From Enterobacteria phage 9g: a stretch of DNA of 56,702 bases. The stretch is taken from the sequence record NC_024146.1; one strand, 5' to 3'. Positions 9,202 through 15,642 of this stretch are shown piece after piece. The notes under the pieces are model-generated. The model saw only the letters and a list, made by a program, of their open reading frames with translations. It had not been told where the DNA came from and did not search any database. Both the position numbers and the translations under genes were made by a program. Each line of letters starts with the position of its first letter. The stretch's first letter is position 1.

Positions 9202-9924
9202 TTAATTTAAGCCACGTTCTTTTACCCAGACCCCTAATGTATTACTTGATGTATTACGCTTCACACCTTGTGCCTCTAAACGATCCATCATTTGTTTTCT
9301 AAGCTGTAGGATTTCCTTCTTGTCACGAGGTTCACCAGCTTCTTTCCACATTTCGTCAGCAATAACGAAAATAATATCGCGAGTGCCGGCTGTACGCAAC
9401 GTTGCGGCACGTTTTTCGTTTGTCGGTGTGCTAGTACCTTGCCGCTCCCTTGTCGGTGTCCATGCCCCTTGTATGCCCATATTTGTTTGTACGGTTGGGC
9501 CGTCAATGATGGTGGATTCCAATGAACTATCATTCCGTACTTGAATATTAGGCTCCTCCCCCAAATCTGGAACAGAGCTGCCTTCGCGGTACATGCACTC
9601 ACCCTCTTTATTACTAGCAATTGCCCAGTCCGCTTGTTCAGCCACATCCGCATCTATCACTGTCTCCGGTATTTCATTTAAAAAGTAATGGATGATCTTA
9701 CTGATCATTTTCTTTGGATATAAAGCACCTTGCTTATTACCCGTTAAGTTGATATACAAAAGTTGCATTTGCACATCATCAAACTCTTTATACAGTTCTT
9801 CAACTTCTAACGGAAGAACTACAGAACTTTCGCTACAGCATAGAATTCCATACTCATGAAGACGTTGGAAGTTTGGATGCTTGGCTAATACCTGCATCCG
9901 ATCATAATCAATTAAGACGTACAT
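9202..9924 (-). CDS. Hypothetical protein
   Basis: 240 aa, ATG at 9924 with GGAAGGA upstream. Confidence 0.6.
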   Translation of the reverse strand: MYVLIDYDRMQVLAKHPNFQRLHEYGILCCSESSVVLPLEVEELYKEFDDVQMQLLYINLTGNKQGALYPKKMISKIIHYFLNEIPETVIDADVAEQADWAIASNKEGECMYREGSSVPDLGEEPNIQVRNDSSLESTIIDGPTVQTNMGIQGAWTPTRERQGTSTPTNEKRAATLRTAGTRDIIFVIADEMWKEAGEPRDKKEILQLRKQMMDRLEAQGVKRNTSSNTLGVWVKERGLN

Positions 9925-9944
9925 GTTAATCCTTCCAATTAAAA

Positions 9945-11948
9945 TTAAAACGGAATGTCGTCATCAAAATCTGGTGGTAGTTCTTTACCGTTACCAGTAA
10001 GAATAGGTTGATTAGACGTAGAATGCAATACCGTCGTACGGGAATCAGTCTGCTCATCTTCATCAAACTTATTCGTATAACTGCTACCAAACTGGGACAG
10101 ACCATTCATTGCTGCAATTTGTACAACCGGACGTTCGTTTGTTGCTTCTTTCTTACCGAATTCACTACCATCATAACAACTATTCAACACTTCAGGGAAC
10201 TTACCCTTCAAGTTGACATAAATGTGCGTCGGTACACGAAGCTGGCTGACCACATTGAGGGCTTCATCAATGTTAGCTGGGATTGCCAGGCTACAATGCT
10301 CACGCCACCAGTTACGCGCTTTCTTGCCCGCAAAGCCAGTATGGAACAAGCAGATGTATTGTTGGATAGTTTGTGAGCCACAAAGATAGTCGACACGAAG
10401 TGTTGGTGGTTTAGAACGGTCACCCCTGTTCTCGTGGCGGTAGTAACTCACCATATCAACTTTCAACACTTCAGTAACTGGTAAATCATTCTTGATAATA
10501 GCTTTCGTACTAGCACTCGCCATTAGTTTCTTCTCAAAAGTAAACTCATGACCGCAATAACCAGCACGGCACGCTTTATTATTTGTAATGGTATAACCTG
10601 ATCCTTGCAGATAGAGTATTTCTTCATGCGACATACTGCTTGTGTCGAATGGTTTTAACCCACCACAGAAGCGAACTGACGCATGGTTCCATGTTTTACA
10701 TATTGGGCATTCCTTAACAGGTGCAGCGGATTTTCCTTTCTGCCCTGGGCGCTTAGGAATAACAGGGTCATTAATAGGCCCAAGGCGTCTTGTGTTACCT
10801 GCATAATCCAATACAAGACAGTTCTGTTTATGCGAAGCGGAGATAGCTTGCAAACGACCCTCCGTTGTGGTCAAATCAAAACCATCTGCATAATCAGGTC
10901 GTGTACCACGTCCAAGCATCTGAACCCACAAACGGGAAGATTGAGATGGTCGCATACCAATTATCAAATCAAGTCCCGGATGGTCAAAGCCTGTCGTTAA
11001 TACGTTGTTGTTTGCTATTGCCTGTAAACGACCAGCTTTAAAATCAATAAGATACTGGTCACGCAAGGCTTTAGGTGTGTCACCAGTTACAACTTCACAA
11101 CTAATACCGCGCTCGTTGAGGTAGTCTTTAACATCTTTTGCATGGTCTACACCAGCACAAAAGACAAGCCAACTCATTCTATTCTCTTCTTCCGCAATAC
11201 TAATTGCATCATCTAATAAATGGCGAGTTACATCAGGATCGTTTACAACCTTTTGAAGCTCACTTTCAATGAACTCACCGCCTCGAGTATGAACACCACT
11301 TACATCATACTCTTTCTTTGTTTTACGTGGTACTAACGGAACAAGATAACCTTCATCAATGAACCAGTTGAAGCACTCTACGGTACACGCGTTAAATACG
11401 ATTTCATCAAATAGAGCGTTAGGCGCATAATCATCTTTGATAATAGAACCAAAACCAAGACGCCAACTCGTAGCAGTAAGACCGATGATCTTTAGATATG
11501 GATTCTTTTCGCGAATGTGCGCAAAGAACTTCTGATAACTTGTTTGCTGATTTGGACTAATAAGGTCACATTCGTCAACTATAATAATATCAACGTCCTC
11601 AAAGTATTTAGCTTGTTTTGCAACAGACTGAATACCCGCGAACGTTATCATTGCATTCTTATCTTTGCGACCCATACCAGCACTGTAAATACCAGTCGGT
11701 GCTTCAGGCCACAACTTCTTAAATTTATCGTGGTTCTGGTCTATCAATTCTTTTACGTGAGTAATTACCATCATGCGGGTACTACCCCAATTATCGTGAA
11801 TTGTCTTTAATAGACCAGCAATTACAAGGGACTTACCAGTCCCTGTAGGCAACAAGATAACAGGATTTCCTGACTTTTCACCATGCTTGATGAAATAGCG
11901 CAATGTACTGTTTACAGCTTCTTGCTGATAATCACGTAGTTTGAACAT
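9945..11948 (-). CDS. Superfamily-2 DNA helicase (DEAD/DEAH-like) with C-terminal zinc-ribbon-like region
   Basis: 667 aa. DYQQEAV (Q motif), Walker A LLPTGTGKS, DExD-like IIVDECD, LTATSWR (motif III-like); CPICK...C near the C-terminus. Confidence 0.8.
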   Translation of the reverse strand: MFKLRDYQQEAVNSTLRYFIKHGEKSGNPVILLPTGTGKSLVIAGLLKTIHDNWGSTRMMVITHVKELIDQNHDKFKKLWPEAPTGIYSAGMGRKDKNAMITFAGIQSVAKQAKYFEDVDIIIVDECDLISPNQQTSYQKFFAHIREKNPYLKIIGLTATSWRLGFGSIIKDDYAPNALFDEIVFNACTVECFNWFIDEGYLVPLVPRKTKKEYDVSGVHTRGGEFIESELQKVVNDPDVTRHLLDDAISIAEEENRMSWLVFCAGVDHAKDVKDYLNERGISCEVVTGDTPKALRDQYLIDFKAGRLQAIANNNVLTTGFDHPGLDLIIGMRPSQSSRLWVQMLGRGTRPDYADGFDLTTTEGRLQAISASHKQNCLVLDYAGNTRRLGPINDPVIPKRPGQKGKSAAPVKECPICKTWNHASVRFCGGLKPFDTSSMSHEEILYLQGSGYTITNNKACRAGYCGHEFTFEKKLMASASTKAIIKNDLPVTEVLKVDMVSYYRHENRGDRSKPPTLRVDYLCGSQTIQQYICLFHTGFAGKKARNWWREHCSLAIPANIDEALNVVSQLRVPTHIYVNLKGKFPEVLNSCYDGSEFGKKEATNERPVVQIAAMNGLSQFGSSYTNKFDEDEQTDSRTTVLHSTSNQPILTGNGKELPPDFDDDIPF

Positions 11949-12899
11949 TTACTCACCGTAATAATCTGCTGCTTCGTATTGACCACATGCAGCCATCTGA
12001 TCTTCCTTCGTTAATACACCTTCGGTTCCATCTGTGATGTATGCAGTGGCAGAAGCTACTTTGATTGCACATCTCCAGGTTCCATCTTCAAGCGGATAAG
12101 AGTGCTTACAGGTGCGGCAGTTAACTTCAGGCATCTTATTGTTATGACATACCGCTTTGTGGTCACACCATTTGCATTTATAGTAAGACTTACTTTCATT
12201 GATCTTAGGTGGTGGGCATTCTGCCAGTGCAATTACAAATCCACGGTCTTTGTAGCGTTCTGCGGTTTCTTTATCAAACGGTACAAGCTCTGCCCAAATC
12301 TCGTCCGTGTTCTTATTAACTGCAATATAAAGAGCGGCTGGGAGTCCATAGTACAACATGTATTCCTGCATCTGAACATAGTGCTCCCATTTGGATTCCA
12401 TTACACCATTAACGACAAGTTTCTTGAACGAATCATTATTGTGCGTTTTCATCTCCGTTAAGATTGGTGTAGAAGGTTGTGGCATGTCAGGACAACCAAT
12501 GACAATACCATCTATCGCGGAGCCAAAGTGTCCGTTGAGATAGCTGACTCGGTACTGGCTACCATTTTCGTCTTGTTGGATGACTTGCATACCGGCGGTA
12601 AGTAATAAGGCCACGAAGCGACCTTCTTCAAGATGTCCGCGATTGAATAGACGTAAGGTTTTACCGTTAAAGTGTGGTTTTGTTGCCCATCTCCATCCGT
12701 AGAAGATTGCTCTGCTACACTCTTGCCCGATAAGACTAATCCCAAGATGCGAACGGAATCCGCCATCCCCCTCTCTATATGCGTCTTCAATATGCGGTAA
12801 TACTTTTCCGAGCCATACTCTGTAAGCGGATCCTTGATCTCGTTCAATACAGTCATTGAATAACTCCATTGTCTTAGTAGCAGGATAAAAATGTGGCAT
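11949..12899 (-). CDS. Putative PD-(D/E)xK-type nuclease with C-terminal Cys cluster (Cas4/RecB-like exonuclease)
   Basis: 316 aa. C-terminal CKWCDHKAVC ... CRTCKHS ... C (Fe-S/Zn-like cluster); sits between the helicase and the recombinase genes. Confidence 0.45.
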   Translation of the reverse strand: MPHFYPATKTMELFNDCIERDQGSAYRVWLGKVLPHIEDAYREGDGGFRSHLGISLIGQECSRAIFYGWRWATKPHFNGKTLRLFNRGHLEEGRFVALLLTAGMQVIQQDENGSQYRVSYLNGHFGSAIDGIVIGCPDMPQPSTPILTEMKTHNNDSFKKLVVNGVMESKWEHYVQMQEYMLYYGLPAALYIAVNKNTDEIWAELVPFDKETAERYKDRGFVIALAECPPPKINESKSYYKCKWCDHKAVCHNNKMPEVNCRTCKHSYPLEDGTWRCAIKVASATAYITDGTEGVLTKEDQMAACGQYEAADYYGE

Positions 12900-12961
12900 A
12901 TCATAATCCTATATAGAAAAATAAAGCTCCCGGAGGAGCTTTATTATAACATGATTTTTAA

Positions 12962-13888
12962 TTACTGTGCAGCGTCATCACCTTCAGTGGAACGTTTCCA
13001 CGGTGGAGTCTTGGTCTGAGCTGCTTTAGCGATATCGTCCTGGACTTCCGGTTCTGCATGGTTAGCAGTACCAGTGTTCTGAGCTTGAGTTTGCGGTTGC
13101 TCTGCTCCAGGCTGTACCTGCTGAGTTGCCCAGTTAGGCTGCTGTGTGGTTTGTTGCTGCTGCGGCTGCTGCGCACCAGTAGCCCACGGTTGAGATTGTG
13201 CCGCGCTGTTAAAATCAACTGTTCCAGACTGCTGCTGTTGCTGTACCGGCTGCTGCGGCTGTTGTTGCTGCTGCGGTTGCTGGAACCCCTGAGCCTGAGG
13301 TTGTTGCTGCTGTTGCTGCGGCTGCTGCCCAAATGCGCCCGGGAAACCCTGCTGCTGCGGTTGCTGCTGTTGTTGCTGAGCACCACCGAACGCACCACCA
13401 CCAAATGCTGGAGATTGTGCTGCCGCTGCCGGAGTTGATTTAGGCAGGTTAGCCATATCCGCCTTAGTTGCGTATACAACACCTTCCATATTATCAATTG
13501 CTTGATAAATCTGAGGTTCGTTGTTTGGCTCATAGCCAGGTTGCTGACGAACTTTCACTTTCAGGTTAAACGGAATACCGTGCAGTTGTTCCGTATCGTT
13601 CCAGACTGGAACTTTAACAGCACGAGACAGCTCTGCCAGTTCTTCCATTGCAATCTGTACAGCGACAGGGTTCGCGTTCTTGACGTTGTAACCGCCAAAC
13701 ATCACACGACCAGCAAAATCACCCTGCATGATCTTAAACTGAAGATTCAGACGCGCACCGCCTGGAGTTTTAGTCGGTTTGATTTCAGAGTTTACAATCT
13801 GAACAACATACCAACCAGCGGGCATCAAGCTGTTGTGTTGACGCTCTGCGTGTTGTCCAGCGTTAAATTGCATTCCTAAACCGGCCAT
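12962..13888 (-). CDS. Putative ssDNA-binding/annealing protein (DUF669-like) with long Gln/Pro-rich linker
   Basis: 308 aa, ATG at 13888 with AAGGGG upstream. Globular N-terminal domain followed by a ~110-aa Q/P/G-rich low-complexity segment; adjacent to a Sak4-like ATPase gene, as is typical for DUF669 proteins. Confidence 0.5.
   Translation of the reverse strand: MAGLGMQFNAGQHAERQHNSLMPAGWYVVQIVNSEIKPTKTPGGARLNLQFKIMQGDFAGRVMFGGYNVKNANPVAVQIAMEELAELSRAVKVPVWNDTEQLHGIPFNLKVKVRQQPGYEPNNEPQIYQAIDNMEGVVYATKADMANLPKSTPAAAAQSPAFGGGAFGGAQQQQQQPQQQGFPGAFGQQPQQQQQQPQAQGFQQPQQQQQPQQPVQQQQQSGTVDFNSAAQSQPWATGAQQPQQQQTTQQPNWATQQVQPGAEQPQTQAQNTGTANHAEPEVQDDIAKAAQTKTPPWKRSTEGDDAAQ
13093..13435. repeat. 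CAG/CTG-rich low-complexity DNA encoding the poly-Gln/Pro linker
   Basis: Runs of ctgctg/ttgctg on the plus strand (e.g. 13200-13400) correspond to QQQQQQPQQQ... in the minus-strand protein. Confidence 0.7.
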
Positions 13889-14633
13889 TATTGTACCCCT
13901 TTGATTTTGTTAATGATTGCACCGAGATGTGGATATTCCATCTGTCTAACGAACCAGAACGATCTTTACATACATTTGACAGATCTGGTCTTGTCAGCAG
14001 ATAACGAAAATCTGCTTGAGTATTTTGGTCTTTACCAACACTAATCTTGAACACTTCGTCAAAAAAGTATGGTAATTCTGGACCTAATTTTGCACCAGGC
14101 ATAGAAGGACCATAAGACGTAATACCTGTTAACTCGTCCTTATTACGGGACATTTTAGCTGCCATGTATACGTTAAGTCCAGGGATATCTCGAAAAGCAC
14201 GAACCAACGTTTGCATCTTCTCAATGAGATCCCCATAAGCCTGACGCGGATCCTTTACAGTACGCTTCGCATTGTTAAGGCACTTTTCAGCAATCTCAGT
14301 AAGTGAATCCAGCGCAAGAGACTGAAAGCGCGGTAAACCATCTTCACCTACAGGATTGTTTGCAGGATTAGTTGCCCAAACGTAAGCCTGCTCCACATCC
14401 TGGATATTTTCAACCGTGATGGTTGGAATATCGTAACAGATATCTGGTCTGTTTTCACCAAACACACGAGCAATGTTATTCGGTGTTAAAGACAGAAGCC
14501 CAGACTCTGCAGAAATCAGCAACGGTCTTGGAAGAGTTGCTGTAAGCATGGTCTTACCCATACCGGATTCACCATACACAAGCATCTTGACACCAGTGTC
14601 CAAAACTGCCTGCGCGGTAGTTGTAAATTGCAT
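13863..14633 (-). CDS. Sak4-like RecA-fold ATPase (phage recombination protein)
   Basis: 256 aa. Walker A GESGMGKT near the N-terminus; ATG at 14633 with AAGGAA upstream. Confidence 0.6.
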   Translation of the reverse strand: MQFTTTAQAVLDTGVKMLVYGESGMGKTMLTATLPRPLLISAESGLLSLTPNNIARVFGENRPDICYDIPTITVENIQDVEQAYVWATNPANNPVGEDGLPRFQSLALDSLTEIAEKCLNNAKRTVKDPRQAYGDLIEKMQTLVRAFRDIPGLNVYMAAKMSRNKDELTGITSYGPSMPGAKLGPELPYFFDEVFKISVGKDQNTQADFRYLLTRPDLSNVCKDRSGSLDRWNIHISVQSLTKSKGYNNGRFRNAI

Positions 14634-14697: not shown

Positions 14698-15642
14698 TTA
14701 TTCACTAATATCTGTTGGATCACGGAAACTTTGATGCGTAGGAATACGCAATTTGTCTTTCATACCGTGAGCAAAGAATTTCCATTTAGAAATCTTCCCA
14801 ATGAATTCATCAGGATGCTCAAAATAATATTTACGTTCTTCGTGCGTAAGACGACCAGCACCTACACGCATCTCTTGCCCGACTTCAATAAGATCTTCAA
14901 GGCCTTCTGGTACTGTAAGCACACGTACATCAAATGAGCCAACCATACCATTTGGAACCATATTAGCTTGATGACTTGAACGATAAGTCTGCCCTAACTC
15001 ATTAATCTGGGCTTCATTCTCATTGGTGCAACCTTCGATGATACGAATGATCTCACCTTCACCATCAGTAAAACGTTTGATGCGGAGATAACCGCCTTCA
15101 CGCTGCGTACTACGGCCCCATTTATATTTCGCTTCAAGGTCACGAATAATAACACCTTCGTACCCCATATCGAGCCAAATATTTTCCCACTCCAGGAGTT
15201 CTTGTTCGTTGTTGACCACATACAGTGGTACAAGTTTCACGTCCATCAACTCACCGTTAGCGTGGCATTCGTCCACGTACTTCTTGAGCATATCATAACG
15301 CTCTTTGTACGGTAGATGTGCAACGTTCGGTTCGCACAAATCGAATACATGCCACGTCCAAACGTATTCACCTTCAATTTTAGATGTTGCACTACTTGTT
15401 TTGCGACATAAGTCAAAGTCCGTTTCGTCCCCAACGGCAAGCTCACCGTCCATACCATCATAAATGGGAGATCCAAACACCTTTGCGACCTGCTTATTTG
15501 CAAAAGATTTAAGACTTCGTCCAACAAGTTCCCCAAACGGCTTCATTCCACGAACGCCGTCAATTTTAGGCATAATACCTACAGGATATTTCTGTTTAGC
15601 TGAATCCCAATCTGTTGCTAGATAAGGTTTAAATCGAGCCAT
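14698..15642 (-). CDS. ATP-dependent DNA ligase
   Basis: 314 aa. Adenylation motif I KIDGVRG (KxDG); ligase-like length and context. Confidence 0.8.
   Translation of the reverse strand: MARFKPYLATDWDSAKQKYPVGIMPKIDGVRGMKPFGELVGRSLKSFANKQVAKVFGSPIYDGMDGELAVGDETDFDLCRKTSSATSKIEGEYVWTWHVFDLCEPNVAHLPYKERYDMLKKYVDECHANGELMDVKLVPLYVVNNEQELLEWENIWLDMGYEGVIIRDLEAKYKWGRSTQREGGYLRIKRFTDGEGEIIRIIEGCTNENEAQINELGQTYRSSHQANMVPNGMVGSFDVRVLTVPEGLEDLIEVGQEMRVGAGRLTHEERKYYFEHPDEFIGKISKWKFFAHGMKDKLRIPTHQSFRDPTDISE

Follow-up and report, generated by a model that had tools for sequence, protein, structure and literature searches.

The single-stranded DNA (ssDNA)-binding protein (SSB) of E. coli is tripartite, with a linker of Q, P, G and A that includes sparse W and F, and the length and composition of this linker vary between species. 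In E. coli the linker is 56 amino acids (aa) long, contains 17 G, 11 Q, 16% P, W136 and F148, has been implicated in cooperativity and condensation, and changes to its aromatic or basic residues alter condensation (PMC12143593). Among phage proteins, DUF669 (Pfam PF05037) was tied to the SSB of phage N4 by HHsearch, was predicted to adopt a diverged oligonucleotide/oligosaccharide-binding (OB) fold, and occurs in phages without other SSBs (Kazlauskas et al. 2016, PMC4889955). The protein encoded beside Sak4 in phage HK620 (HkaK, or 'Abc1') is a bona fide tetrameric SSB that was equated with DUF669, and its last six residues, NDYPPF, are needed for Sak4 to bind SSB-coated ssDNA and for annealing and recombineering to be stimulated (Hutinet et al. 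2018, PMC5928155). Here we analysed an SSB-like coding sequence of the DUF669 type in Enterobacteria phage 9g (accession no. NC_024146.1; the whole stretch of 56,702 nucleotides is referred to as the window), identified from the list of open reading frames (ORFs), Pfam and PHROG at 12962..13888 on the minus strand (308 aa and a stop codon), whose Q/P-rich segment was pointed out in the initial annotation. With a probability of roughly 60%, we regard this segment as the intrinsically disordered tail of a putative ssDNA-binding protein that the phage itself encodes, in which a PPW tip docks the Sak4-like ATPase and the Q/P tracts act as spacers.

DUF669 was the sole Pfam family found in the SSB-like protein (residues 14-116, E = 1.5e-8, 35.3 bits, cut-off 21); Pfam SSB (PF00436) gave no match. 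The protein also matched phrog_6015, 'single strand DNA binding protein', with E = 3.7e-100. A word-indexed search for homologues of the N-terminal domain (N-domain) gave only 7 proteins, and an exhaustive HMMER (phmmer) search used in its place yielded a family of 5438 representatives at E ≤ 1e-3. AlphaFold2, with a 141-sequence alignment as input, predicted a globular domain for residues 1-150 (13439..13888, minus strand) with block-mean predicted local distance difference test (pLDDT) scores of 81-98, at least 93 over most of residues 21-130, and with the order strands 25-38, 45-53 and 62-70, helix 74-91, strands 107-114 and 122-129. The modelled domain has the five-stranded OB-fold topology b1-b2-b3-helix-b4-b5, in agreement with the diverged OB fold predicted for DUF669, the family related to N4 SSB (gp45) of which this protein is a member, and its structural neighbours among the predicted viral structures of BFVD (Foldseek) are phage DUF669/'SSB' proteins. 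Residues 151-308 lack secondary structure in the model and score near 50 in pLDDT; they are taken as predicted to be disordered, which bears out the flexible linker expected in the initial annotation. On this model, the protein is composed of a DUF669 OB domain (1-150), a nearly uncharged disordered tail of some 130 residues with much Q, P, A and G (151 to approximately 278) and a conserved tip region (279-308), and has the SSB-type architecture of core, disordered linker and conserved terminal motif.

The likeness to E. coli SSB is one of architecture. BLASTP against E. coli SSB gave only E ≥ 1, and tblastn with the same query revealed no canonical SSB of the E. coli type in the window. Compared with E. 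coli SSB, the phage protein shows no sequence homology, its tail is about three times longer and dominated by Q, and it carries a sub-terminal PPW instead of an acidic tip. Searches of PDB sequences with the single sequence and with a profile gave no match for the SSB-like protein. The nearest solved fold was PrgE of pCF10 (PDB 8S4S; Breidenstein et al. 2024, PMC11137577), which shares 12% identity, has a C-terminal tail of about 14 residues and acts in conjugation.

The Q/P/G-rich stretch of about 110 residues was confirmed as residues 152-266 (13093-13435, minus strand), which comprise 115 aa with 49 Q, 15 A, 14 P, 12 G, 6 F, 2 W and two charged residues. The Q excess in these residues has a binomial P of 5e-35 at an assumed background of 4.5% Q, and the peak of 22 Q per 30 aa in the SSB-like protein compares with 9 in the runner-up ORF of the window. 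The segment is therefore real and far beyond chance, yet the DNA encoding it is an imperfect repeat, a mixture of CAG, CAA and CCG in which the longest pure Q run spans 6 residues. The Q codons of the entire protein are 42 CAG and 24 CAA, and the G+C content is 60% in the linker DNA versus 44% in the window. Tandem Repeats Finder detected weak arrays with periods of 3, 9, 12 and 15 and scores of 32-44, all under its default threshold of 50. A protein qualifies as Q/N-rich (prion-like) by the Michelitsch-Weissman criterion when an 80-residue window contains at least 30 Q and N. Residues 171-250, with 44 Q and N, fall within this class; amyloid-type behaviour is disfavoured because the same residues hold 9 Pro and Q runs do not exceed 6.

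The window represents a Nonagvirus (9g-like) phage, and the SSB-like gene shows 93-98% DNA identity to its counterparts in JenK1, JenP1/2, SE1, ChristophMerian, FritzHoffmann and BRET. About 20 relatives whose N-domains are nearly identical encode proteins of 292-315 aa, and the gene showed neither a frameshift nor a stop in about 20 isolates. Among the 13 GenBank isolates that were aligned (301-315 aa), hardly any variation is seen in the N-domain or in the final 59 residues. In the codon alignment, gaps occurred in 30/100 columns of the Q tracts (residues 151-219 and 237-248) versus 0/225 columns elsewhere (Fisher P = 1.4e-17), the length of every linker indel was a multiple of 3 nt, and variable nucleotide sites per site amounted to 0.23 and 0.36 in the two tracts versus 0.08-0.11 elsewhere. 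The main indel hot-spot is linker part A (residues 151-219; 13232..13438, minus strand; pLDDT about 50), which starts with an A/G/F-rich stretch (AFGGGAFGG, GFPGAFG, QGF), continues into Q/P tracts, and shows gaps in 21 and amino-acid changes in 18 of 86 alignment columns. The second is linker part B (residues 237-248, TGAQQPQQQQTT; 13145..13180, minus strand), with gaps in 9 of 14 columns.

The indels include single-codon changes, duplications of 9-15 nt (HdSG1 and BRET) and a replaced motif (GFPGAFG, JenP2); in the metagenomic variant L029, with 292 aa, the residues from the first Q/P tract up to the following ...PQ(A/T)QGF are deleted, which removes the only GFPGAFG motif of this protein. 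The Q/P spacers thus evolve, as the comparison of isolates indicates, by in-frame indels between imperfect CAG/CAA/CCG repeats. Pure trinucleotide slippage as the only mechanism was rejected, since the codons are mixed and several variants duplicate or delete units of 9-48 nt or have a motif replaced; from the sequences, the length change looks like misalignment among imperfect repeats. The initial annotation had described the repeat DNA as slippage-prone and the linker length as variable between isolates. The variation was borne out, at 292-315 aa with indels confined to the Q tracts and all in frame; the slippage part held for length change and failed for pure slippage, as the mixed codons and the array scores of 32-44 make the DNA less slippage-prone than had been implied. 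Two ORFs overlapping the repeat, a Leu/Arg-rich ORF of 126 aa on the plus strand (13058..13438) and a Ser/Arg/Asn-rich ORF of 191 aa in another frame of the minus strand (12958..13533), were rejected as genes and attributed to the CAG/CTG-rich composition, because only the DUF669 frame stays open in all relatives, across in-frame indels.

Disordered linkers of biased composition and variable length are a standard feature of SSBs, and in this respect the segment is ordinary. The same variation could be read as that of a purely neutral spacer, in which the Q/P tracts do nothing except join the domain to the tip and owe their composition and length to replication slippage and drift. The spread of 292-315 aa among phages with identical N-domains, the range of family tails from 0 to about 200 aa with 0-50% Q, and a nucleotide variability in the tracts that is 2-4 times that of the domain are all consistent with such a spacer. 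We consider it unlikely, given that most relatives keep long tails, that about 20 isolates show no frameshift or stop, that an uncharged A/P/Q composition holds over loci of 37-63% G+C, and that conserved motifs are embedded in the tail in a fixed order.

These motifs show that the Q/P-rich segment is not uniform. Two non-repetitive conserved islands interrupt it, island 1 at residues 220-236 (QSGTVDFNSAAQSQPWA; 13181..13231, minus strand), which contains W235 and is invariant at the protein level in the 13 GenBank isolates, and island 2 at residues 249-265 (QQPNWATQQVQPGAEQP; 13094..13144, minus strand), which contains W253 and aligns as QQPxWAxQxVQPG. The island 1 motif AAQ(S/T)QPW was found again in homologues with N-domain identities of 80% and 61%, and the W of island 2 is invariant over eight homologues with N-domains approximately 40-80% identical. 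A third motif lies in the C-terminal tip region (residues 279-308, EPEVQDDIAKAAQTKTPPWKRSTEGDDAAQ; 12965..13054, minus strand), with a PPW core at residues 295-297 (12998..13006). The Trp motifs of the protein are accordingly QSQPW235, QQPNW253ATQQVQPG and AAQTKTPPW297. W297 is conserved in at least 90% of the 141-sequence alignment, and A, Q, P and W are invariant when the eight homologues are aligned as AQxxxPPW.

The same trend extends beyond close relatives. We examined the C-terminal extensions of the 149 representatives nearest to the SSB-like protein, a sample biased to its own branch, and of related viral homologues in IMG/VR. P.?W occurs within the final 25 aa in 139/149 representatives (exactly PPW in 95) and in 53/55 IMG/VR homologues. 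The extensions are 0 to about 200 aa long and contain 0-50% Q; the 101 tails of at least 60 aa consist of 22% A, 20.5% P, 20% Q, 6.7% G, 6.6% charged residues and 2.5% Trp. The median tail of this length has 3 Trp in the motif [PQ]-P-W-[AQ]-Q, and 88 of the 101 carry an internal Trp motif besides the terminal one. Tails rich in A/P/Q/G with repeated QPW or GW motifs were seen across phage loci of 37-63% G+C. Arrays of Trp motifs in uncharged Q/P/A tails thus appear as a family-wide trait of this DUF669 branch.

The initial annotation had described an SSB-like protein with an acidic tail that recruits partner proteins. Its SSB-like character agrees with the DUF669 and phrog_6015 matches, while the acidity was only weakly recovered: the last 30 aa contain 7 D/E versus 4 K/R, and these 4 K/R, all inside the last 25 residues, are the only ones in the tail. 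The protein ends in ...TPPWKRSTEGDDAAQ, which is not an acidic tip of the D-D-D-I-P-F type. Although DUF669 C-terminal tails were described as acidic (PMC4889955), the last 15 residues are net acidic (net ≥ 3) in only 23/149 representatives, compared with 139/149 with P.?W, and an acidic-xPF end like the C-terminal tip of E. coli SSB (SSB-Ct) was present in 2/149 representatives and 0/55 related viral DUF669 proteins. As judged from these sequences, acidity is not the conserved property of the tail, and the partner-recruiting role assigned to an acidic tip is not upheld; what is conserved is the sub-terminal PPW together with the two internal Trp motifs. For annotation, the gain is a domain boundary, a map of the constrained parts of the tail and a corrected expectation about the acidic tip.

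The composition of the tail also raises the alternative of a scaffold for cooperativity or condensates, in which W and F stickers in uncharged Q/P/A/G spacers drive cooperative SSB-SSB contacts or liquid-like foci of replication/recombination and the tail length tunes them. The E. coli SSB linker, which tunes condensation, is the closest compositional analogue (PMC12143593) and makes such a role a live alternative: 54 Q, 6 F and 3 W are found among the 158 residues of the phage protein's tail, and the share of W in long tails and the internal W motif in 88/101 of them fit the same pattern. The tail of P0008, a homologue with an 80% identical N-domain, contains GWGQPQQ twice, the same heptapeptide as in GGWGQPQQ of the E. 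coli SSB linker, which may reflect convergence or mimicry in low-complexity sequence. The scaffold nevertheless seems improbable to us, since it is based on composition and analogy, the tail offers no Arg or Lys for cation-pi contacts save the four near its end, and the conservation around the W motifs is more suggestive of specific binding sites than of generic stickers.

The genomic context points to Sak4 as the candidate partner of the tip. Genes for a ligase, the Sak4-like ATPase, the DUF669 protein, a Cas4-domain exonuclease and a superfamily 2 (SF2) helicase follow one another on the same strand. Orthologues are annotated at the matching position in 12 Nonagvirus genomes, and Sak4 lies immediately upstream of DUF669 in 12/12 Nonagvirus loci and in 7/8 distant GenBank phages; in the eighth, UPF_BP2, a small ATPase ORF sits between the two. 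The Sak4-DUF669 order, usually followed by a Cas4-like exonuclease and a helicase, is kept in the 8 distant phages, whose hosts are E. coli, Providencia, Stenotrophomonas, Vibrio, Pseudomonas, Moraxella and Salmonella. A search of IMG/VR with 12 aligned N-domains retrieved 61 distinct loci; Sak4 was found in 50 of them and directly precedes DUF669 in 41. The records of RefSeq relatives label the gene 'single strand DNA binding protein', beside a 'Sak4-like ssDNA annealing protein', and notes in the records of two relatives call it 9g_00013 of phage 9g.

HK620 SSB resembles the phage 9g protein in that its gene is directly downstream of, and co-oriented with, a Sak4-like AAA_24 gene, that it is DUF669-like according to its authors and the names used at NCBI, and that both proteins have a proline-aromatic C-terminal tip, NDYPPF in HK620 and TPPW in the window. 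It differs in being 195 aa long, in having a short C-terminal region without a Q/P-rich tract or internal Trp motif (family consensus), and in placing its tip at the extreme C-terminus, where the PPW of the window is sub-terminal. By analogy with NDYPPF, PPW is likely a partner-docking tip, and the tip peptide AAQTKTPPWKRSTEGDDAAQ offers a concrete candidate for Sak4 docking. In the mechanism that we propose, the OB domain would coat ssDNA arising from the adjacent Cas4-like exonuclease and RadD-like helicase, the flexible tail would project the PPW tip out of the nucleoprotein filament, and the tip, possibly with the internal Trp motifs, would dock the neighbouring Sak4-like ATPase/annealase on SSB-covered ssDNA, as extrapolated from HK620. 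The Q/P spacers would mainly set reach and flexibility and tolerate length change. The BASEL-collection Nonagviruses ChristophMerian and FritzHoffmann are tractable systems for this mechanism.

Several observations weigh against docking of Sak4 by the tail of a true SSB. BLASTP detected no homology between HK620 HkaK and the phage 9g protein, and hhalign, with single sequences and profile-profile, gave 1.4% probability and E = 0.037, with a plausible alignment of the b1-b3 motif only. HkaK has no Pfam DUF669 match, gave no significant link to the phage 9g protein by NCBIfam either, and belongs to PHROG 743, compared with 6015 for the phage 9g protein. As this homology is not significant, HK620 is used here as a functional analogy only and membership in one family is not claimed. 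PPW ends 11 residues before the C-terminus, whereas tips of the SSB-Ct type use the terminal carboxylate, and the Sak4 C-terminus is frameshifted in the window. When Sak4 was fused through GS linkers to the tail and then to the helicase tail (Sak4 + GS + tail + GS + helicase tail), AlphaFold2 folded Sak4 confidently, with pLDDT of 50-70 for TPPWKR and below 50 for its surroundings; the helicase tail was almost all below 50 (one residue at 50), the paired alignment being shallow and the model judged by pLDDT only, with no control. PPW was not docked confidently in this model, so the Sak4 step remains an inference. Finally, PrgE binds double-stranded DNA (dsDNA) as well as ssDNA (PMC11137577), and the fold alone is thus no proof of SSB function.

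This last point, with the equal and atypical binding of ssDNA and dsDNA by PrgE as the closest solved fold (PMC11137577) and the non-significant hhalign homology to validated SSBs, would also suit a protein that is not an SSB at all, in which DUF669 would be an OB-like module that serves a different purpose, for instance as a dsDNA-binding or adaptor protein, and the tail a hub for the proteins of the module. We hold this to be very unlikely, because tblastn revealed no other SSB candidate in the window, DUF669 phages are without known SSBs (PMC4889955), and the adjacency to the Sak4 annealase is conserved, as it is for HK620 SSB.

The gene neighbourhood bears on the choice of partner as well. 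N4 SSB activates E. coli RNA polymerase at late promoters via its C-terminal region. A comparable dual role, with the tail contacting the RNA polymerase or a different factor of the host (for instance, to activate late transcription) instead of or besides Sak4, could be argued from the HHsearch link between DUF669 and N4 SSB (PMC4889955) and from the three distinct conserved motifs, which could serve several partners. It is a distant prospect for a gene placed in a recombination/replication module beside Sak4 and followed by a terminator, and docking of Sak4 by the tip remains the reading that we prefer.

An SSB-Ct tip does occur in this module, on a different protein. The RadD-like SF2 helicase (9945..11948, minus strand), two genes downstream of the SSB-like gene, ends in DFDDDIPF (9948..9971), the C-terminal tip of E. 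coli SSB; what is carried by SSB in E. coli is carried by the helicase in this phage. The helicase matched RadD 6jde_B with E = 9.7e-65 (phmmer) and the NCBIfam RadD model with E = 2.7e-87, below the equivalog cut-off. Its tail is conserved in 11/12 relatives, was also noted in L015, L019 and L020, and an acidic [IVLM]PF end was found on the downstream helicase in 25 of the 39 related IMG/VR loci in which the C-terminus is complete, compared with none of the 55 DUF669 proteins of these loci. E. coli RadD has a defined pocket for SSB-Ct, which stimulates its ATPase (PMC10238739). In the phage helicase, the hydrophobic residues of this pocket align (T15, L16, F19 and three aliphatic residues), and among the pocket Arg residues R145 is replaced with K and is the only one kept basic, R21 is replaced with I with an adjacent K, and R49 is replaced with S. 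The helicase DFDDDIPF may activate its own SSB-Ct pocket in cis, or engage or hijack host SSB partner proteins. No description of a phage helicase with an SSB-Ct tip was found in the literature searched.

The SSB and the helicase of phage T7, gp2.5 and gp4, both carry acidic tails ending in Phe. They provide a precedent for a phage SSB and a phage helicase each having a C-terminal docking tail, with the differences that gp2.5 lacks a long Q-rich linker and belongs to another fold family, and that the two tails in the window are chemically distinct (PPW versus DFDDDIPF). A more far-reaching proposal, which we regard as possible and put forward tentatively, is that the two functions of the bacterial SSB tail are split over two proteins in this widespread phage module: a long uncharged Q/P/A tail on the SSB, whose Trp-motif array would act multivalently, as docking sites or as stickers, in contacts with Sak4 and in SSB-SSB cooperativity or the formation of condensates, and an SSB-Ct moved to the RadD-like helicase, with linker length tuning the phage replication/recombination compartment. 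If true, Trp arrays and a helicase-borne SSB-Ct would bear on the organisation of phage recombination and on its interface with host SSB partners.

The neighbouring genes of the module, all on the minus strand, are an ATP-dependent ligase (14698..15642), the Sak4-like AAA_24 ATPase (13863..14633; PF13479, E = 7.5e-23; phrog_124 'Sak4-like ssDNA annealing protein', E = 5.4e-51) and the Cas4-domain (PD-(D/E)XK) exonuclease (11949..12899; phrog_1990, E = 7.9e-115). Compared with JenK1, the Sak4 gene in the window has a 1-nt deletion at approximately 13945/13946 (plus strand TGTCTA versus TGTTCTA), by which the last 20 or so codons are out of frame, the conserved C-terminal ...PHLGAIINKIKG helix is lost, and the frameshifted ORF overlaps the SSB start by 26 nt. 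The deletion is either a sequencing error or a genuine lesion. Sak4 of HdK1 has another, different C-terminal frameshift.

Directly 3′ of the SSB stop codon, a hairpin resembling an intrinsic terminator (12920..12945, minus strand), with an 11-bp stem followed by a T tract, divides the Sak4 and SSB genes from the exonuclease and helicase genes. Its predicted RNA fold is -16.4 kcal/mol (z = -3.4), and it is annotated as a terminator in SP8 and HdSG1. A sigma-70-like promoter match (10/12) at 12971..12943 overlaps this hairpin. Not all relatives carry HNH/homing-endonuclease genes between the ligase and RNase H genes, which were seen in JenK1 and FritzHoffmann (L001 6179-6709; L006 6346-6690). 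Just downstream of the helicase, most Nonagvirus relatives have a 79-aa ORF (L007:237-476, minus strand), absent from the window (9924-9945) and from JenK1, which gave a borderline Pfam match to ArdC-N (anti-restriction, ssDNA-binding; E = 1.4e-4, 22.5 bits, cut-off 22.6).

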